NCBI GenBank assembly: GCA_041603795.1
Contig: JBFIDQ010000002.1
Coordinates: 1 to 39,208 of the forward strand
Reading direction: 5' to 3'
Length of the DNA stretch: 39,208 nucleotides
DNA from: Chlamydiales bacterium
GTDB taxonomy: Bacteria > Chlamydiota > Chlamydiia > Chlamydiales > JBFIDQ01
Shown here: piece by piece, positions 1,425 to 16,331 of the stretch
Layout: every line of letters begins with the position of its first letter
How positions within the stretch are numbered: the first letter of the stretch is position 1
Program-made: the position numbers and the translations under genes
Notes under the pieces: model-generated
Database searches by the model: none
What the model saw: only the letters and a program-made list of their open reading frames with translations
What the model was told of the DNA's origin: nothing

Positions 1425-3296
1425 ATGAAAAAACTATGGCCATTTATAGCCTTGATTGTGGGGATTCCCCTTGCTTGGGCGGCACTGGAATATGATATCC
1501 CCAACAACGTCTTTAAGATGGGAGACGGTGGAGCGGTCAATGACAAGGAGCTCGTCTTCAATGTCGGAGACGGAGCCTCGAATCCAAGCATCACAATTGA
1601 TGCGACAAATAAAGACTTCACTTTAAATAAAGCTTTAAAGGTCGGGAATGCTCTTCTCCAATTGGGGACAGGATCTCCCGCCGACGTTGAGATCGAATTG
1701 GATTATGGACTCGGTGGAGCCGCAAATCCAAAGCTTATCTATAAGTCCGCGGACGATGCGTGGTTTTTTCGGAATGCAAATGGAGTCGATAAGAGAATCG
1801 GATCCGGTGGTGGAGGAGGCAAGAATGTCTTCAATCAATTGACAAATCCGGGCTTCGAGGACGGAGTGACTTCCAATTGGACAGCATCCGGACTTGTGCC
1901 GACGGAGCTCACAAATGCCGCTGATGTCGGGATCGGACTTAAGTCCGCTCGAATCGATTGCTCGGGAGCCGGTCAATATTACGAGGCCGATCTTGAGACT
2001 TTTGCGAATGTCGTTGTGGACGGATTTTCTTGTCAAGCTGACTTTAAGTATAAAGGAGGCGACGCTCTTTGGGATGTGAAAATTCTCGACGGAGCGGCGG
2101 CGGTCGTTGCGAGCGACACACTCTCCGCTTCGACGGATTGGAGAGATGCAAATTCGATTTATTTTCGATGCGATGCCCTTGGATCCGATCAAGCAAAAAT
2201 AAGATTTGAATGCACGGGCGATGCCGCCCAATTAGATCTCGATGAGGTATATCTCGGGAATATGACAGGCTTGAGTGAAGCCGCTCTCCCGGACACCTTT
2301 GGAGCCGCTTTAAATTCAAGCGGCAATGTGTTGACCGAGAGTGCCGATTTTATCGACGGAAGTTGCATCCACGCCGCGGCCGTGTACACATGCACATTTG
2401 TGAGTGGGTTATTTACCGTTGCTCCTTCATGTGTTGTCACCGCCAACGGAGGCGGTGGATCAAGCGAGAGGATTGCGACAATAAGAATATTAAGCACAAC
2501 GACACTCGAATATAGGACGGACATCGCTTCGACCGGTGTCGCTAATTCAAATCCGGCTCAAGTTATTTGCCAAAAGCAAGGAGTCGACGCAAAGCAGACT
2601 GTCCAAATTTTTCAAAACGTCCCAAAGGTCGCGGAGAATCTTAATCAATTCAGCATGAAGGGAAGCAATTCCGGAGTAGTGTCGGACGAGAATGCCGATT
2701 GGATTAATGGCAATTGCACCAACATAACACCAGGGGACTTTGCCTGCGCTTTTGTCGCCGGTACTTTTGACGCCGCTCCAAATTGTCAAGTGACGGCTCG
2801 AGTCGGTATCGACGGATATGGTGCTCATGTGACTTCCGTGTCGAATACATCGATCGGATTTACAACAACGGTCAACGGGACGACGTCTTCAAGTGTCGCT
2901 CACACTCTTAATTGCGAGAGGTCGACCGATCACAAGACCGTCGAAGTCCAGCCGATTGTCATTCGGCAAGTGGAGACGGGGTTAAAAGCCGGATTAATCA
3001 CGCATGAATGCCAAATTAATGGCACAAGCGGGACTCCATTATCCCAAACGACAACGCTTTGCGATTATTGGATCGACTCATATACCGATCTTGGGCCCGG
3101 GAATTATAGAGCAAATTTCAACGCCAATGCTTTCAAGCCCGGCGGCGAGGTCAATTGCACGTGCTCAAGCCTTGATAATGAGTCTTGTTATTTGGGAGCT
3201 CTCCCGACACCGTCTCTAGTTGAATTAGTGGCGAGAGATGCGGCGACAACACTCACAGATGCAAGGATATTTTTAACATGCACAGGAGAGAGATAA
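1425..3296 (+). CDS. receptor-binding tail fibre candidate with hydrophobic N-terminus, CBM-like segment and three Cys-rich repeats
   Basis: AGGAG lies 6 nt before ATG 1425; an ATG at 1419 is an alternative start. MKKLWPFIALIVGIPLAWAA resembles a signal peptide. NPGFEDG..W is a CBM-like box. Three modules of about 120 aa start near 2341, 2691 and 3057. Confidence 0.5.
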   Translation: MKKLWPFIALIVGIPLAWAALEYDIPNNVFKMGDGGAVNDKELVFNVGDGASNPSITIDATNKDFTLNKALKVGNALLQLGTGSPADVEIELDYGLGGAANPKLIYKSADDAWFFRNANGVDKRIGSGGGGGKNVFNQLTNPGFEDGVTSNWTASGLVPTELTNAADVGIGLKSARIDCSGAGQYYEADLETFANVVVDGFSCQADFKYKGGDALWDVKILDGAAAVVASDTLSASTDWRDANSIYFRCDALGSDQAKIRFECTGDAAQLDLDEVYLGNMTGLSEAALPDTFGAALNSSGNVLTESADFIDGSCIHAAAVYTCTFVSGLFTVAPSCVVTANGGGGSSERIATIRILSTTTLEYRTDIASTGVANSNPAQVICQKQGVDAKQTVQIFQNVPKVAENLNQFSMKGSNSGVVSDENADWINGNCTNITPGDFACAFVAGTFDAAPNCQVTARVGIDGYGAHVTSVSNTSIGFTTTVNGTTSSSVAHTLNCERSTDHKTVEVQPIVIRQVETGLKAGLITHECQINGTSGTPLSQTTTLCDYWIDSYTDLGPGNYRANFNANAFKPGGEVNCTCSSLDNESCYLGALPTPSLVELVARDAATTLTDARIFLTCTGER

Positions 3297-3868
3297 TGAA
3301 AAAATATTTGCTATTAGGATTTGCAATCTCCTTAAATTGCAGCGCGGGATATATGTCCCAATCGGATCTTGAGTCTTGTGAAAATAGCCGGACAAATTAC
3401 ACAAGAAAATCAAAGTGCGAGGCTTCGGAAGGAGCTTCTTGCTTCGAAGTCCCAAGCGGATATGAGTGTGCTTATCATCGAGTCACCGCTCAAGATGAGG
3501 ACGATCTCTCAAGTCCGATCTTCACAAAGAGTGAAGTGGAAGCTTGTGCGGATCAAGACGATTGTGATTCGATGCACGCGGCAAAATCTTGCACGGACAC
3601 CGAAGAGACGGCGATCAAGAATTATGATTCTCTCGAAGTGTATTGCTCAAAAGATTCCGGGACATTTAATCAAAAGAGCGTCACAAAAGCTCGTGAAGAT
3701 GCTTCACTTAAGAGCTCTCATAATGCTTCGGAAGCGGCAAAGACCGCCGCGGAGGATGCGAAAATGAATGCCCTTAGAGCCGTGAAGGCGAAGCTCGAAT
3801 CGAATGCTCCATTGAGTGACGTCGATCGCGACAAAGTGATCGAGCATCTTTTAAGGCAAATTGAATAA
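3296..3868 (+). CDS. Cys-rich lipoprotein (o-spanin-like or exclusion protein candidate)
   Basis: TAATG overlap with the upstream stop, with GGAGAG upstream. MKKYLLLGFAISLNC looks like a lipobox. There are many Cys residues and a C-terminal helical, charged tail. Confidence 0.55.
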   Translation: MKKYLLLGFAISLNCSAGYMSQSDLESCENSRTNYTRKSKCEASEGASCFEVPSGYECAYHRVTAQDEDDLSSPIFTKSEVEACADQDDCDSMHAAKSCTDTEETAIKNYDSLEVYCSKDSGTFNQKSVTKAREDASLKSSHNASEAAKTAAEDAKMNALRAVKAKLESNAPLSDVDRDKVIEHLLRQIE

Positions 3869-3877
3869 GGAGTGATC

Positions 3878-4228
3878 ATGTTTTTTAAGTATTGGGAGAT
3901 CATTAAGGGACTTGCTCCGATTTTAATTAAGCTCGATGCGGCGACAAGGACAGTCGCCTTTGTCGTGGTGTGCGTCTTCTTCTCTTCCAAATACTTAATC
4001 GATTATGTCGACGCGAAGCACTTGGAAGTAAATTCAAAAATCGAGAAGGAGCAAGGCGTGCTCAAAGAAAATCTTGTCGATAAAATGGACGCACAACACA
4101 AAGTGATCGTCGCACTTATGGGAGCCATGAAGGAAGATGCCCAAAGGACACGAGAAGGAGTCCAAGAGACTAGACGCAATGTCCTTCAAATTTATAAGGA
4201 TTTGAGTGCTCTTAAGAAGACAAATTGA
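3878..4228 (+). CDS. N-terminally membrane-anchored coiled-coil protein (i-spanin- or holin-like)
   Basis: AAGGAG lies 5 nt before the ATG. One TM segment (VAFVVVCVFFSS) is followed by a charged helical region. Confidence 0.4.
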   Translation: MFFKYWEIIKGLAPILIKLDAATRTVAFVVVCVFFSSKYLIDYVDAKHLEVNSKIEKEQGVLKENLVDKMDAQHKVIVALMGAMKEDAQRTREGVQETRRNVLQIYKDLSALKKTN

Positions 4229-9491: not shown

Positions 9492-10511
9492 ATGAGCAAA
9501 ATTTTCGCCGTCAATCCCGACGGCACACTTGCGCAAAAATCTTACACAATCGAAGAATTTGTCGACGCGGCAAATGGCACAACACCACTCACCGGAAGAT
9601 TCCGTGGAGTCCCAAATGAAGTATATCATCGGAGGCTCGCACACTTATCGAACACCGATCTCGGAAGACTTAATCGGTCAATCGAGCACTTCTTTGAGTC
9701 GAGAATCAATCCGTCGGAGCCGACATCCGCTCTTATATTTGGGAGCGCATTCCATGAGATCATTCTTGAGCCACATCTCTTCGATGCCAACTGGATCGAG
9801 ATGCCGGACTTTGCGGGGATCCCCGGAGTCACAAAGAAGGCGAAGGATGAGGAGTGGATCGCAAAGAATCCCGAAGCCGACAAGAAGGACATGCCCAAAT
9901 TTAAGCCGACTCCCGCCGTCACTAAAAAATCCCAAGAAGAAGCTTGGACTCTCGAGCACGCCCAAGATAAGACGATCCTTGCGATCGAGGATCTCGTCAA
10001 TCTTCGAGGGATGTCCAAGCGATGCAAAGAGCATCCGATCCTCTCCGAGATGCTTCAAGGTGGAGTCGCCGAAGATGTATTCCTTGCCGTGGATCCGGAG
10101 ACGGGAGTCCCAATCAAATGCAAGACCGACTTCCTTCACAATAATGGCGATATAAATCTCGACATGAAGAGCACCGTCGACGCTTCATTCTTCCAATTCC
10201 AAAAGTCCGTTGCAAATTTCGAGTATCATCGCCAAATGTCTTTTTATTCTCATGTGGTTACACTCGTCACCGGCAAGGCTCCAAAGCACAACGTGATCGG
10301 ATCCGTCGAGAAGAAGGCTCCTTGGAATGTCGCGGTCTATCGATTGGACGACGCTTCCCTGGAAGTCGGTGAATCCAAATGGAAGAAGGCACTCTCCACC
10401 TTTGCCGCCTATCGCAAAGAGAAGCAAGAAAATGGATCCGCTTGGGGAGGATATGCTCTCGAAGTGATCGACATGAATCTCCCGGCTTGGGCATTCAACC
10501 GGGAAGAGTAA
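9492..10511 (+). CDS. PD-(D/E)XK exonuclease (RecE / exonuclease VIII-like)
   Basis: Motifs GSAFHEIILEP, KCKTDFLHNNGDINLDMKST (a D..D.K core) and FEYHRQMSFYSH. Lies next to the annealing-protein candidate and SSB. Confidence 0.7.
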   Translation: MSKIFAVNPDGTLAQKSYTIEEFVDAANGTTPLTGRFRGVPNEVYHRRLAHLSNTDLGRLNRSIEHFFESRINPSEPTSALIFGSAFHEIILEPHLFDANWIEMPDFAGIPGVTKKAKDEEWIAKNPEADKKDMPKFKPTPAVTKKSQEEAWTLEHAQDKTILAIEDLVNLRGMSKRCKEHPILSEMLQGGVAEDVFLAVDPETGVPIKCKTDFLHNNGDINLDMKSTVDASFFQFQKSVANFEYHRQMSFYSHVVTLVTGKAPKHNVIGSVEKKAPWNVAVYRLDDASLEVGESKWKKALSTFAAYRKEKQENGSAWGGYALEVIDMNLPAWAFNREE

Positions 10512-12089: not shown

Positions 12090-12812
12090 TTGAAGTGGTT
12101 TAAGCACTATTCAAATGCAACACACAATTTGGGATTATCGACAATCATCGACAAATTTGGCTTCGAAGGTTACGGGCGATATTGGAGATTTTTGGAATTC
12201 TTGTGCGAGAATTTTGACGGAGAATCGACCGATTTTAAAATAAGTAAAAGAGTGATTCGAGATATCTTACGCATTAGATCCGGGTATAAACTGGATAACT
12301 ACCTGGTAGCTATCGGCTTACTATCCGGTATTAAAATTATTAAAGAGGATAGCTCTTATAAAGTAAGTGCACCTATCTTGTTGGAATTAAAAAGTAGAGA
12401 CTTTAAAAAAGCGCGCCACGACCGCGCCACGACCGTGCCTAAGAATAAGAATAAGAATAAGAATAAGAGTAAGAAGGAGCCGACTCCCGCCGCCGCTCCC
12501 TCATCTCTTGTGACGGATGTCGTCAATTATCTCAATGAAAAAACCAGGAAGACATTCAAGCCCAATTCAAAATCCACAATTAAGAAAATTAATGCAAGGG
12601 CTCAAGAAGATTATTCTCTCGAAGACTTCAAAGCCGTGATTGACTTCAAATGCAAAGAATGGAATCACGATCCCAAATGGAGCCAATACTTGCAGCCGGA
12701 TACACTCTTCTCGACAAAATTCGAGGGATACCTTCAAGCGTCAAAAAAGAATGAAGCTCCGGATGATTTACTTAAAATCTTCGAAGATCACGGGGGATTA
12801 TCGAATGAATAA
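12090..12812 (+). CDS. replisome organiser / replication initiation protein (DUF4373-like N-terminus + Phg_2220_C-like C-terminus)
   Basis: The N-terminus KWFKHYSNATHNLGLSTIIDKFGFEGYGRYWRFLEFL and the C-terminus VVNYLNEKTRKTFKPNS..INARAQEDYSLEDFKAVIDFKCKEWNHDPKWSQYLQPDTLFSTKFEGYLQ match those family signatures. TTG start with AGGGGA upstream. Confidence 0.75.
   Translation: MKWFKHYSNATHNLGLSTIIDKFGFEGYGRYWRFLEFLCENFDGESTDFKISKRVIRDILRIRSGYKLDNYLVAIGLLSGIKIIKEDSSYKVSAPILLELKSRDFKKARHDRATTVPKNKNKNKNKSKKEPTPAAAPSSLVTDVVNYLNEKTRKTFKPNSKSTIKKINARAQEDYSLEDFKAVIDFKCKEWNHDPKWSQYLQPDTLFSTKFEGYLQASKKNEAPDDLLKIFEDHGGLSNE
12412..12435. repeat. perfect tandem duplication of an 11-mer, CGCGCCACGAC x2 (+CG)
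   Basis: Read directly: 12412-12422 is identical to 12423-12433. This is a GC-rich island at the boundary of the AT-rich N-terminal domain. Confidence 0.9.
12441..12476. repeat. hexanucleotide microsatellite (AAGAAT)4 AAGAGT AAGAAG
   Basis: Read directly. It encodes the NKNKNKNKSKK linker of the replisome organiser. Confidence 0.9.
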
Positions 12813-13623
12813 GATCCAAGACGCACACATGAGCCACAACGAGCTCAAAGATATCGCCGAAGAGAATGCGCATGAATATATCAAAAGCGGATTCGAATTC
12901 ATTCGAGCACACAATGGGCTCCGTCCTGGATGCGTGCATTTATTCCTTGGGACATCCGGATCCGGGAAGTCCACCGTCGTCCGGAAGATAATTCTCGACT
13001 CCGCGGATGAGCACACAATCCTCGTGTGGCAATCCGAAGAGACTCGAGAGGACTTTGTGACATCACTCGTCAAGAGCTACCCGAAGCCCGAAGTCGCTCG
13101 AAATATCAAGATTGTCTCGGAATTTGGATTGGGAGAGGATGTCGTCCAAAGCCCTCAAGCTGTCTTCCAAAAATATGCGGAGACGGTCAAAGCTTTAAAT
13201 CCTAGGGCCGTCTTCTTCGACAATATCACAACGAGTCGAATGTATATGGGCCTCCGTCCAAACGAGCAAGATGCAATGGCGTGGAAGATCAAAGAGCTCC
13301 ATGAGTCCACCGACATTCCCGTGCTTATAATTGCTCACACGAGAGCGGACGTGACGGATTCGGCGGCAAGACTTATCGAAGATACCGACATCCGGGGATC
13401 CAAATCGATCGCAAATCTCGCGCCATATTTATACATCTTCCAAAGATTTGAGATTGACGATCACGTCTTCCCGACGATACGAGTAAGAAAATCAAGGAAG
13501 CATCAAGTCGCGAATAAACTCTTCCGATTGATTTATTCAAAAGAGAAGAATGCCTATGTCAAAGATCTCGAGCTCCCATTCAAAGAATTCAAAGAAGCAT
13601 TTTCAAAAAGGAATCGACTATGA
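12805..13623 (+). CDS. P-loop ATPase, DnaB/RepA-like replicative helicase candidate
   Basis: Walker A LFLGTSGSGKST and Walker B-like AVFFDNIT, plus IIAHTRAD. ATG 12805 overlaps the end of the organiser gene by 8 nt. The track ORF 12640.. is an upstream extension. Confidence 0.6.
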   Translation: MNKIQDAHMSHNELKDIAEENAHEYIKSGFEFIRAHNGLRPGCVHLFLGTSGSGKSTVVRKIILDSADEHTILVWQSEETREDFVTSLVKSYPKPEVARNIKIVSEFGLGEDVVQSPQAVFQKYAETVKALNPRAVFFDNITTSRMYMGLRPNEQDAMAWKIKELHESTDIPVLIIAHTRADVTDSAARLIEDTDIRGSKSIANLAPYLYIFQRFEIDDHVFPTIRVRKSRKHQVANKLFRLIYSKEKNAYVKDLELPFKEFKEAFSKRNRL

Positions 13624-14222: not shown

Positions 14223-14630
14223 ATGAGTGGAGTGAATAAAGTGATCGTCTTGGGACGATTGGGACAAGATCCCAAATTGGATTACACCACATTGGGGACA
14301 CCTTATTGCAAGATGTCCGTCGCGGTGTCCAAGAAGACAAAAAAAGGTGAGCACACGGAATGGATCAAAATTACTTGCTGGGAGAAGACCGCCGAGCTCG
14401 CGAATCAATATCTCAAAAAAGGATCCCAAGTGTATTTTGAAGGAGAGCTCAAGACGAGCACTTATGAGAAGAATGGGGAGAAGAGATATTCCACCGAAGT
14501 GAATGCTTATGTGATGCAATTCATCGGAGGCAAAGAGCCGGGACAAGCCCAATCAAAAGGCTTCGATCACGACTCTCCCGCAAATCAAAAGCTCGACGAG
14601 TCGTTCACTGTCGATGACGTTCCGTTTTGA
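14223..14630 (+). CDS. ssb: single-stranded DNA-binding protein
   Basis: OB-fold signature MSGVNKVIVLGRLGQDPKL...W..I.CW.K.AE....YLKKGS.VYFEGEL.T and the acidic C-terminal tip DDVPF. AAGGAG SD. Confidence 0.9.
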   Translation: MSGVNKVIVLGRLGQDPKLDYTTLGTPYCKMSVAVSKKTKKGEHTEWIKITCWEKTAELANQYLKKGSQVYFEGELKTSTYEKNGEKRYSTEVNAYVMQFIGGKEPGQAQSKGFDHDSPANQKLDESFTVDDVPF

Positions 14631-15493
14631 GTCGCGTCATGGAGAAAATGAATGTGCTCGATCTTTTTTCTGGAATAGGTGGATTTTCTCTTGGGCTTGA
14701 GCGGGCCGGAATGAAGACGATCGCCTTTTGTGAAATGGATCAAAATTGCCAAAAAGTATTAAAAAAACATTGGCCGGACGTCCCAATATTTGACGATGTG
14801 AAAAAATTAAAATGGAGCGAGAGAGGGACGCCAATTGATGTCATTTGCGGTGGATTCCCTTGTCAAGACATATCAGTCGCCGGGAAAAAAGTCGGCATCA
14901 AAGGAGAGAGAAGTGGACTATGGAAGGAATTTAAAAGGCTTATTAAAGAGATTGAGCCACGATATGCCATTATTGAAAATGTGCCCAATCTCCGCAATCT
15001 CGGGCTTGCGAGAGTCCTCAAAGATTTGTGGGCGCTCGGGTATGACACGGAATGGCATATTATATCTGCTCGCTCCATTGGTGCACCACACCTCCGAGAG
15101 AGATTGTGGATTATTGCCTACCCCAAAAGCAATGGAGGTGCAAGAGACTCCGGGGATATACTTGGAGAGAAAAAAAAGGAATCCAAAATTAGGGGGCCCG
15201 AGTCTTACGGTAGCAGCACAAATGAGATCTCTTCCAACACCTACAACCTTCGATGCTGGAAGCCCTTTGCCTCCACGGAAGAAGCATCCCGGTGGTGGTC
15301 AAAAGCCGCCGCTCGTGTCGGTTATTGGGAAGAAGCTCAATCCTACATTTGTGGAGTGGATGATGGGGTATCCGGAAAATTGGACAAAATTCGTCGATCA
15401 AGAGTAAAAATGCTTGGCAATAGTGTATTGCCACAAATTCCCCAATTAATCGGGGAGGCCATTATAAATTATGAGGAAAAACTTTTGCAATAA
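14627..15493 (+). CDS. DNA (cytosine-5)-methyltransferase (see the finding on split-frame motifs)
   Basis: Motif I DLFSGIGGF, IV GGFPCQDIS, VI ENVPNL, VIII GAPHLRERLWIIA, X KMLGNSVLPQIPQLIGEAI. TTG 14627 overlaps the ssb stop (TTGA); ATGs at 14639 and 14648 are alternative starts. Confidence 0.75.
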   Translation: MSRVMEKMNVLDLFSGIGGFSLGLERAGMKTIAFCEMDQNCQKVLKKHWPDVPIFDDVKKLKWSERGTPIDVICGGFPCQDISVAGKKVGIKGERSGLWKEFKRLIKEIEPRYAIIENVPNLRNLGLARVLKDLWALGYDTEWHIISARSIGAPHLRERLWIIAYPKSNGGARDSGDILGEKKKESKIRGPESYGSSTNEISSNTYNLRCWKPFASTEEASRWWSKAAARVGYWEEAQSYICGVDDGVSGKLDKIRRSRVKMLGNSVLPQIPQLIGEAIINYEEKLLQ

Positions 15494-15517: not shown

Positions 15518-15877
15518 ATGAGCAAAAACAATGAAATGGAAGTAAATTTTAAGGGACTCCCGAAGCAAGATCCAATGGTGAGAGCCCTTGATCTTATTGA
15601 GAGGACTCAAGGCGATTTTAAGAATGCTTATGCCGAAGCAAAAATGCACGCGGTATCAAGAGCAAAGATTGACACGATCATGATGCGTCAAGAATTAAGA
15701 ATCAAAAATCTTCAAGACTTAATCTCGGATGCATTGGAGAGAGGCTTCTTGATTCCGGAATTAAAAGCGGCGGCGGCGGGATTCCCTCCAAAAGCAAGAG
15801 AAGTCCGTCTCGATCAAGAAGCCGATGGCCCGGTCGACCGAAGCCCGGAAGCCGATGCCGGTGGAGTGCCACATTAA
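15518..15877 (+). CDS. hypothetical protein
   Basis: AAAGGA SD; 119 aa. Confidence 0.5.
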   Translation: MSKNNEMEVNFKGLPKQDPMVRALDLIERTQGDFKNAYAEAKMHAVSRAKIDTIMMRQELRIKNLQDLISDALERGFLIPELKAAAAGFPPKAREVRLDQEADGPVDRSPEADAGGVPH

Positions 15878-16331
15878 TAATATAATTCTTGAAGGAGGGG
15901 AGATCTTAATTCGAGACTTCCCTCTCCCTCCTTCTTCAAATTCATTATATCGGAATATTAAAAATGGACGCGCCGGACAATTGGGACGAGCGAAGACGGA
16001 AAAATATAAGCTATATTGCGACGATGTCGCGATGTGGGCGATTGTCCACGGCAAGACACTCAAGCGGACGAGATCCGAAGTCAATGATTTGCTTTTGATT
16101 CACAAGACTCTCCAAATCGACGCGACATTTTGCATTGCGGAGAGTCGGTGCTATTCAAAAGACGGTAAGATCAAAAAGATCGACACCTTCAATCACATCA
16201 AAGCCCTTCATGATCAATTATCGGAAGTGCTTTGGGTGGATGATCGATTCTTTTGGGACGGCAACGTGAGAAGACAGCCATGCGACAAGAAGAGCGAGCG
16301 CGTGATTATACGCATTAAGGGGAGGCAATAA
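15855..16331 (+). CDS. rusA: RusA-like Holliday junction resolvase
   Basis: Motifs LPPSSNSLYRNIKNGR...KTEKYKLY and IDTFNHIKALHDQLSEVLWVDDRFF (the D.DN..K..D...DD pattern). The start could be 15825 or 15855. Confidence 0.65.
   Translation: MPVECHINNIILEGGEILIRDFPLPPSSNSLYRNIKNGRAGQLGRAKTEKYKLYCDDVAMWAIVHGKTLKRTRSEVNDLLLIHKTLQIDATFCIAESRCYSKDGKIKKIDTFNHIKALHDQLSEVLWVDDRFFWDGNVRRQPCDKKSERVIIRIKGRQ

Follow-up and report, generated by a model that had tools for sequence, protein, structure and literature searches.

We analyzed a 39,208-nucleotide (nt) stretch of DNA assigned to a Chlamydiales bacterium (contig JBFIDQ010000002.1, positions 1 to 39,208 of the forward strand; hereafter the window), and in particular a C5-cytosine methyltransferase gene at 14627..15493 whose conserved motifs are divided between two reading frames. 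We consider it likely that this locus specifies a two-polypeptide C5-cytosine methyltransferase from two overlapping genes on the same strand, here called alpha and beta, in the manner of M.EcoHK31I, an E. coli enzyme reportedly described in 1995. Alpha occupies frame A and beta lies within it in frame B, which is +1 relative to alpha. Both frames are open, both are under selection in a family of diverged viral loci that repeat the pattern, and the alpha chain by itself has neither motif IX nor a folded small domain. The original prediction for this DNA, made from its letters and a list of open reading frames (ORFs), had offered four explanations, namely compensating indels, assembly errors, recoding at a run of A residues and genuine dual coding. 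It is the last of these that is favored by independent selection signatures in both frames across about 80 diverged relatives, and evolutionary signatures of this kind suggest that both frames are functional coding sequence.

Division of the methyltransferase motifs between two frames

According to both the ORF list and the translation, frame A is stop-free end to end from a TTG at 14627 to 15493 (288 aa), and on this one chain are found the large-domain motifs I (FxGxG), IV (PCQ), VI (ENV), VIII (RxR) and X (GN). Frame B contains an ORF (14835..15407), on the same strand and wholly within frame A 14627..15493, which reads in order GLLPTPKAMEVQ, SLPTPTTFDAGSPLPPRKK and KLNPTFVEWMMGYPENWTKFVDQE and then stops. 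The frame A residues WIIA and the frame B residues LLPTP use common nucleotides (15107-15125, with LLPTP itself at 15111-15125), and a run of eight A residues (A8, 15170-15177) lies inside the middle segment. All of these elements, from the frame A motifs to the quoted frame B peptide, the shared nucleotides and the A8 run, lie exactly where the original prediction had placed them. The parts of the locus are as follows.

14654..15493, + strand: alpha gene in frame A, 279 aa from GTG 14654, with motifs I-VIII, a tether and motif X; database gene call P0001
14660..14686, + strand: alpha motif I, DLFSGIGGF, binding S-adenosylmethionine; from translation, homologue alignment and M.HhaI alignment
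14849..14875, + strand: alpha motif IV, GGFPCQDIS, which holds the catalytic Cys; from translation, homologue alignment and M.HhaI alignment
14901..14906, + strand: Shine-Dalgarno (SD)-like AAGGAG, 6 nt 5' of the beta GTG and inside the codons of alpha's conserved KGERSGLW
14913..15407, + strand: putative beta gene in frame B, 164 aa from a probable start at GTG 14913 to TAA 15405-15407; the frame is open from 14835
14975..14992, + strand: alpha motif VI, ENVPNL; frame B comes under constraint of its own about here or slightly downstream
15018..15125, + strand: beta conserved N-terminal core, SKICGRSGMTRNGILYLLAPLVHHTSERDCGLLPTP, lying over alpha motifs VII-VIII, where both frames are constrained
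15080..15118, + strand: alpha motif VIII, GAPHLRERLWIIA; from translation, homologue alignment and M.HhaI alignment
15117..15332, + strand: beta PTP-repeat region, the candidate target-recognition part, with PTP at 15117-15125 and LPTP at 15231-15242
15119..15406, + strand: alpha tether (frame A middle), stop-free, with essentially unconstrained residues and a low-confidence model
15333..15386, + strand: beta motif IX box, KLNPTFVEWMMGYPENWT, which aligns with M.HhaI KLHPRECARVMGYPDSY and is nearly invariant in beta alignments
15407..15463, + strand: alpha motif X, KMLGNSVLPQIPQLIGEAI, from which frame A is again the sole coding frame; modeled with good confidence (scores of 72-93, below)

Other possible starts for alpha are ATG 14639 and ATG 14648, the ORF being open from TTG 14627.

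Family and domain searches separated the two products. The Pfam methyltransferase profile PF00145 matched alpha with 166.5 bits (cut-off 22; E=1.3e-48) over aa 8-170 of frame A only, a match that ends at profile position 166 of 324, and TIGR00675 gave 138.8 bits, above its cut-off of 100.65. In a tblastn search of phages, the frame B middle peptide matched Paenibacillus phage cytosine methyltransferases (36% identity over 99% of the query, E=5e-4), while the frame A middle peptide had no match in the same search. PHROGs holds one family for each product: alpha matches phrog_363 end to end (E=1e-81) and beta matches phrog_1008, 'DNA methyltransferase' (E=9.7e-18). No model in Pfam or NCBIfam recognizes beta, so that what is likely the DNA-reading part of such enzymes is often missing from annotation.

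The placement of motifs IX and X follows from comparison to M.HhaI, in which KLHPRECARVMGYPDSY...FGNSV aligns to frame B KLNPTFVEWMMGYPENW and then to frame A LGNSV. Since this alignment spans both frames, motif IX lies on frame B and motif X on frame A, and the earlier suggestion that the frame B box NPxFxEW(L/M)MGxPxxWT is the counterpart of motif IX is supported. In M.HhaI and M.HaeIII, both monomers, the small domain, consisting of the target-recognition domain (TRD) and motif IX, is on the same chain and in the same frame as the rest of the enzyme, whereas in the window it is in the +1 frame, and motifs I-VIII, IX and X are recognizable only if both frames are used.

Structure models point to the same division. 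An AlphaFold2 model of alpha, built from a 79-sequence alignment, had predicted local distance difference test (pLDDT) scores of 85-96 for residues 1-160, 36-66 for residues ~161-240 and 72-93 for residues 245-279. Searched with Foldseek, it superposed on M.HhaI and M.HaeIII over ~160 columns at ~2 Å (E~1e-13), in the large domain only. Thus alpha appears, as modeled, to be a HhaI-like large domain and a C-terminal motif X helix with a low-confidence tether between them; the small domain is absent from this chain, as seen from the early end of the Pfam match, the unmatched middle and the low pLDDT there. Beta modeled alone had a pLDDT of 58, with two defined parts, a small hairpin and the motif IX helix (pLDDT 76-82), the latter being its sole confidently modeled helix. 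Such a poor model is what one would expect if beta needs a partner in order to fold, and it is compatible with association of the two chains, although it is no demonstration of this. The confidence of the beta model was too low for a fold search, and the beta profile, also when extended with motif X, gave only chance-level matches against PDB sequences. The beta profile matched 37,203 representative clusters (50% identity) at E<=1e-3 in a library of 1.84 billion proteins, and 19,783 at E<=1e-10; sampled members have a common core, PTP repeats and a C-terminal box.

Layout and selection in related loci

We compared the DNA of 80 related viral loci, 71 of which were handled by a first parser and 70 of which, being distinct, entered the statistics; these relatives are only 40-50% identical in alpha. 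It had been proposed that indels be located by nucleotide alignment to close relatives, but the phage collection held none (three short matches, of 69-80% identity, fell in the N-terminal domain), and the protein-guided comparison of the 80 loci was used instead. A query spliced A-B-A matched thousands of PF00145 proteins, and ~97% of it was covered by tblastn in relatives.

The layout of the window gene recurred throughout. Between motifs VIII and X, frame B was stop-free in 66 of 71 loci, compared to 0 of 71 for frame C, the remaining frame, which served as a control, and alpha was uninterrupted in 76 of 76 complete loci. The ten loci skipped by the parser were no exceptions: six reach motif X without a stop and have a nested frame B, and the other four run beyond the end of their contig. 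The +1 nesting was also found in two plasmids, in the Paenibacillus phage Tadhana and in nine further metagenome loci (L082, L084, L086-L089, L092 and L093 among them). Judged by protein sequence and gene calls, P0152, P0156, P0162 and P0271 looked like free-standing beta genes, but around each of them lies an intact alpha-frame ORF that had not been called.

Frame B has a characteristic composition in these loci. It is open for at least 91 codons 5' of the first PTP in all of them, and over alpha motifs VII-VIII it encodes the beta core, with the family consensus FSETWPRSGMMRNGxAYxLPPLxxLT..SGLLPTP. Its middle begins with PTP straight after motif VIII (PTP was found in 64 of 71 loci, in 1-4 copies at variable spacing) and closes with LNPTWVEWLMGFPxGWTDL, while the position of its stop relative to motif X varies from -15 to +32 codons.

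At first sight, homologues conserve the frame A middle as well, a result of the kind that the original prediction had named as refuting it: homologue proteins, each in a single frame, align over this segment as R[LF]W.PFASE.E..WW...ICRVDDGL..GLD..R..RIKQLGN. Both frames are open in all loci, however, and one set of nucleotides, read with an offset of one base, gives both the alpha-frame EPDVGRVAHGVPNRVDRLKxLGN and the NPTWVEWLMGFPxGWT box. The apparent conservation of the frame A middle is therefore a shadow of frame B. This shadow, the constraint on frame B over motifs VI-VIII and the precedent of M.EcoHK31I had all been overlooked in the original prediction.

We examined selection on the 70 distinct loci with three entropy tests: of codon phase, of fourfold-degenerate wobble positions in frame A and of those in frame B. 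In the first, the third position of frame A codons (A3) was the most variable through motifs I-V (~1.5-1.7 bits, compared to 0.1-0.8), fell to 0.9-1.3 bits over motifs VI-VIII, gave way to A1 (the third position of frame B, B3) in the conserved middle block, and was again the most variable from LGN onward. The frame A fourfold wobble followed the same course, at 1.6-1.96 bits until just before motif VI, 0-1.2 bits from motif VI/VII through the middle (the drop falling at alignment columns ~143-157), and 1.5-1.9 bits again from LGNAVVP onward. In frame B, the fourfold wobble was under tight constraint across alpha motifs IV-VIII. Between the first PTP and motif IX it had almost complete freedom (1.45-1.9 bits), and T was consistently the rarest base there; T at this position is the first base of an alpha codon and the sole route to an alpha-frame stop. 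The two frames bear upon one another directly in motif VIII, where 90% of sequences use TTG for a frame B Leu (alignment column 315), which fixes the wobble of a Val/Ile codon in frame A. Thus, alpha alone is selected over motifs I-V, both frames are constrained over about 50-60 codons spanning motifs VI-VIII, beta is selected while alpha is merely held open from the first PTP to motif IX, and alpha alone is selected from motif X to the end.

That alpha is held open was evident from a test of stop avoidance, in which synonymous codons were permuted within the beta middle of each locus, with the protein and the codon usage fixed. Across the 70 loci, 180 alpha-frame stops were expected and 0 were observed; only 6.8 loci would be open in alpha by chance, compared to 70 of 70 observed. 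Frame C showed no avoidance (341 stops expected, 377 observed). We conclude that the open alpha frame is maintained by selection. Synonymous resampling of the window sequence alone gave a probability of 0.015 that frame B would be open given the frame A protein, and of 0.001 that frame A would be open given the whole frame B protein; frame C has 9 stops in the same span. Among 32 long ORFs of the window, the 198-codon +1 frame of the methylase was one of two outliers (P=0.008).

One type of relative departs from this layout in the location of motif IX. In proteins P0036, P0058 and P0081 and their like (loci L082 1501-2664 and L084 347-1399), motif IX is on alpha, which reads in frame WWGLEPDIPRLADG-KLNPDWVEWLMGFPIGWTEG..RKQRL.ALGN. 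The type has the same alpha N-terminal domain (64-74% identity) and a frame B with a WPRSG..G core and 3-4 PTP repeats, but this frame B stops just before an in-frame-A KLNPDWVEWLMGFPxGWT, which stands at canonical spacing to motif X. Just upstream of the in-frame-A motif IX, the box can still be made out in frame B as a decayed remnant (NPIFHASQTE). Motif IX has thus moved, either from beta to alpha in the variant lineage or from alpha to beta in that of the window; the variant type implies that either chain can provide it, the PTP region being always on beta. These findings fit a model in which the chains complement one another, and show that the family is evolutionarily plastic. We found no monomeric in-frame ancestor among the proteins inspected, the in-frame cases being this variant and two fusions described below.

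A two-subunit model and its alternatives

The closest parallel to the window gene is M.EcoHK31I of E. coli HK31 (recognition sequence YGGCCR), a two-polypeptide C5-methyltransferase whose beta is encoded wholly inside the alpha gene in another frame (PMC2836561, PMC3404938). Its alpha carries motifs I-VIII as well as X, its beta carries motif IX, the chains must associate for activity, and beta has several possible internal starts, at methionines; DNA methylation in vivo is obtained with the two chains produced from separate plasmids (PMC2836561, PMC3404938). The window gene matches it in its nesting and in how the motifs are divided. M.EcoHK31I, however, is part of a Type II restriction-modification system, whereas the window gene lies in a phage replication module without an endonuclease nearby. 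A search of plasmids for an EcoHK31I-like system gave 8 matches, none in E. coli, and both of the two that we checked were nested.

Two-polypeptide C5-methylases have been described in reviews as rare exceptions (PMC3404938). Another of these, M.AquI (CYCGRG), is naturally split into subunits that complement one another, with motifs I-VIII as well as a portion of the variable region on alpha and the remainder with motifs IX and X on beta (PMC3404938). The split in M.AquI is linear, and in enzymes of this type the two ORFs are essentially consecutive (PMC3404938). We rejected such a split for the window, since there frame A has motif X on one chain with motifs I-VIII, and beta, out of frame, lies within alpha and not downstream of it. 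Nested pairs have also been recorded, as distant relatives of the window gene, in Paenibacillus larvae phages (TADHANA_54/55 of Tadhana; Fernvirus), where GenBank gives two coding sequences (CDS), both called DNA-cytosine methyltransferase, with the shorter nested in the +1 frame. The genome paper gives both genes, without discussion or test of the arrangement (PMC6070908), and in other records of the same phage group the nested ORF is a 'hypothetical protein' or a single feature is annotated.

In the window, an internal start for beta is suggested by GTG 14913, which has the best anti-SD pairing among frame B starts (-8.7 kcal/mol, AAGGAG with a 6-nt spacer), compared to -8.5 kcal/mol for the neighboring gene for a single-stranded DNA-binding protein (SSB) and -6.4 kcal/mol for the alpha GTG 14654. 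Moreover, in more than 15 close relatives the called beta ATG lies 0-8 codons upstream of the alignment column of GTG 14913. These features point to initiation of beta at its own start in the window and its close relatives, a local support that does not extend generally across the family.

In the model that we favor, alpha (14654..15493) would supply the catalytic large domain with motifs I-VIII and, after a tether of ~95 codons, would add the motif X helix, which would pack back onto the large domain. Beta would be translated independently from an internal start within alpha, most likely as GTG 14913..15407, and would supply the parts that alpha lacks: the conserved N-terminal core, the PTP-repeat region and motif IX. 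By analogy with M.EcoHK31I, the two chains would assemble non-covalently into a complete enzyme, which would presumably produce 5-methylcytosine. The frame A middle would have no role beyond staying open and keeping motif X attached to the large domain. The PTP region, from its position between motifs VIII and IX, is probably the target-recognition part. Two nested genes would explain why alpha is protected from stops, why frame B is constrained 5' of motif VIII and why the frame B stop wanders. As to the origin of the arrangement, an ancient pair of frameshifts is a reasonable guess.

Several observations weigh against this model. Across the 70 loci, SD-led starts were no better in frame B than in the control frame C (p=0.19), and there is no conserved single start column for beta across the family. 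In no locus that we opened was there a free-standing beta, which is unexpected for a simple two-subunit enzyme, and the constant nesting of beta leaves room for a mechanistic link between alpha and beta translation. The null for openness is somewhat liberal, in that 4 of 64 in-window tests fell below 0.01, and the single-sequence signal is only moderately significant. The likeness to M.EcoHK31I is to its published description and not to a sequence alignment; moreover, the TRD of M.EcoHK31I is reported to be on alpha, whereas in the window the variable region of alpha is the tether and the candidate TRD is on beta. Beta translation and the heterodimer are suggested, here and in close relatives, by sequence and by analogy.

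We considered whether a double programmed frameshift might instead yield one canonical chain, with motifs I-VIII, TRD, IX and X, by translation of frame A to motif VIII, a +1 shift near 15119-15125 (for example at CCC-A), translation of frame B and a -1 shift near 15390-15407. The order of motifs along the DNA is indeed canonical if spliced A-B-A, and the high tblastn coverage of the spliced query (~97%), the lack of any un-nested beta and the absence of family-wide SD support for an independent beta start would all suit such a mechanism, as would the P0081/P0058 variant, in which frame B ends exactly where the in-frame-A motif IX begins, with canonical spacing to X. A double frameshift predicts neither an open frame A middle, which is nonetheless found in 76 of 76 loci (about 7 of 70 being expected), nor a constrained frame B and a beta core upstream of motif VIII. 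Furthermore, only ~4-5 residues would separate GWT from LGN in most loci, compared to ~11 in the variant with motif IX in frame; the frame B stop wanders between -15 and +32 codons with respect to motif X; we identified no conserved slippery heptamer or stimulator; and the text of a frameshifting review that we searched has no DNA methyltransferase case. We therefore regard a double frameshift as unlikely. As a gene class, programmed frameshifting was likewise rejected, in view of a zero frame open throughout (76 of 76), frame B constraint 5' of the putative site and the lack of a conserved slip motif.

A single +1 shift between motifs IV and VI would produce a fusion of a truncated alpha (alpha') with beta, which would act together with full-length alpha. 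This would account both for the constant nesting of beta and for its unconserved start and SD site, and two database proteins (P0159 and P0171) do consist of an alpha N-terminus in frame with beta. Their junctions differ, however, which suggests frameshifted copies or sequencing errors, and the frame A wobble between motifs IV and VI is unconstrained. In the window and its close relatives there is a good SD and start at one conserved place, and the beta of M.EcoHK31I is functional from a separate plasmid (PMC2836561). We consider such a fusion to be quite improbable.

There is still less to recommend the idea that frame B is a fossil of ancient compensating indels, such that only frame A is now translated and the TRD is new or absent. 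Frame A is the one usually emitted by gene callers, is open and has a middle that aligns among homologues, but the high variability of B3 and the free fourfold wobble of frame B are signs of current purifying selection on frame B, which has no stop in 66 of 71 loci whose alpha sequences share only 40-50% identity. Moreover, the frame A middle is modeled as disordered, and alpha would be without motif IX. The related proposal of the original prediction, that compensating indels had left a new TRD or a dead enzyme, does not agree with a frame A middle that is an unconstrained, low-confidence tether. Taken together, these points make a fossil frame B very improbable.

Finally, we give almost no credence to an artefact, whether two assembly or sequencing indels or slippage at the A8 run (15170-15177) during transcription or as a form of recoding, because, although a homopolymer run does lie within the segment, the A/B layout is present in each of the independent contigs, phage genomes and plasmids that we examined, which derive from many samples and sequencing platforms, frame B is constrained from about 15018, ~150 nt upstream of the run, and the surroundings of the run are variable, with indels, in relatives.

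Variants, wider significance and neighboring genes

The arrangement itself is already known, from M.EcoHK31I, from annotations of Paenibacillus phages and from the beta family in PHROGs; what sets the window gene apart is that it stands as an orphan among phage replication genes and that its candidate TRD is on beta. Neither a description of the pattern across the family nor a report of recoding in Dcm genes of phages was found in the literature, but the coverage of this search was incomplete and such absence is unproven. The scale and regularity of the nested arrangement may be under-appreciated. We advance tentatively, as a serious possibility, the broader reading that nested alpha and beta genes could be the standard architecture of a very large and ancient clade of phage and prophage cytosine methylases, with at least 37,000 beta clusters, an overlap of 150-500 codons, a dual-constrained stretch, a stop-avoiding tether and a hopping motif IX. 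If this is true and undescribed, these would be among the largest and oldest long overlapping gene pairs on the same strand in double-stranded DNA phages, and many annotations, like Pfam and NCBIfam, would lack the recognition half of the enzymes.

For the window, we would annotate two overlapping CDS, and neither a single Dcm nor a pseudogene; predicting specificity or expressing the enzyme would require both products. The family would also be a clean natural case of long dual coding and a test bed for methods that detect overlapping genes, to which it is suited because its regions differ, one being dual-constrained and another having one frame at work with the other held open. Heterodimeric methylases have already served as scaffolds for targeted methylation (PMC2836561), work for which a large natural repertoire of alpha and beta chains could be useful.

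The annotation of such loci varies from record to record, and in RefSeq-style annotation alpha is often the one product given. For L090 (Bacillus thuringiensis HD-771 plasmid p05, 810-1550), RefSeq gives alpha alone, as a 246-aa 'dcm', while some gene callers used on metagenomes report beta and miss alpha (L086 and L087).

We noted several further oddities among the relatives. In L092, the alpha frame runs from 2302 to 4107 and beta from 2501 to 4039, the latter encoding 512 aa with extra N-terminal PTP repeats; this beta overlies, between motifs III and IV of alpha, a junk-like insertion of ~130 aa. Thus, beta can extend upstream, and alpha tolerates a shadow insertion within its catalytic domain. 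In P0063 and P0107, an HNH_3 domain (PF13392) lies in frame with the alpha tether, and in L064 and L076 a Cys/His-rich HNH-like ORF in frame B comes after a first NPTWVE.LMGFP box, followed by a second box in L064 and by the segment end in L076. These HNH modules look like mobile insertions that exploit a tolerant tether. In P0159 and P0171, mentioned above, the alpha N-terminus (motifs I-III or I-IV) runs in frame into beta, at a junction that in P0159 reads KRKKLKKLKRK. By the genetic code, a lysine-rich junction would be A-rich DNA, which is prone to indels; these two proteins, the sole hint of alpha'-beta fusions, are probably frameshifted copies or sequencing errors. In L082 (273-1514) and L088 (3902-5530), a gene for an N6/N4 methyltransferase, fused to ParB_N in L082, adjoins the nested pair, which suggests multi-methylase anti-restriction modules.

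The neighbors of the window methylase are a DnaB-like helicase, an unknown ORF and SSB, the last of these upstream, and an unknown ORF and a RusA-like resolvase downstream. No endonuclease gene is adjacent to the methylase among these neighbors, and it is therefore an orphan phage enzyme in a replication module. No tRNA genes were found in the window.

A second +1 ORF with an unusual openness lies at 9529..10155 (+ strand; 208 aa from a TTG, 219 open codons), within the exonuclease VIII-like gene 9492..10511 (+ strand; phrog_412). Its openness P of ~0.001 by synonymous resampling is the most extreme value in the window, and this openness is the whole of its support: the ORF had no PHROG match and no tblastn match in phages. 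Shorter overlaps are listed among the replication genes near the methylase, of ~170 nt between 12090..12812 and 12640..13623 (replication-initiation/DnaB-like) and of ~50 nt between 15518..15877 (unknown ORF) and 15825..16331 (RusA-like); these are probably products of over-long ORF starts rather than real overlaps.

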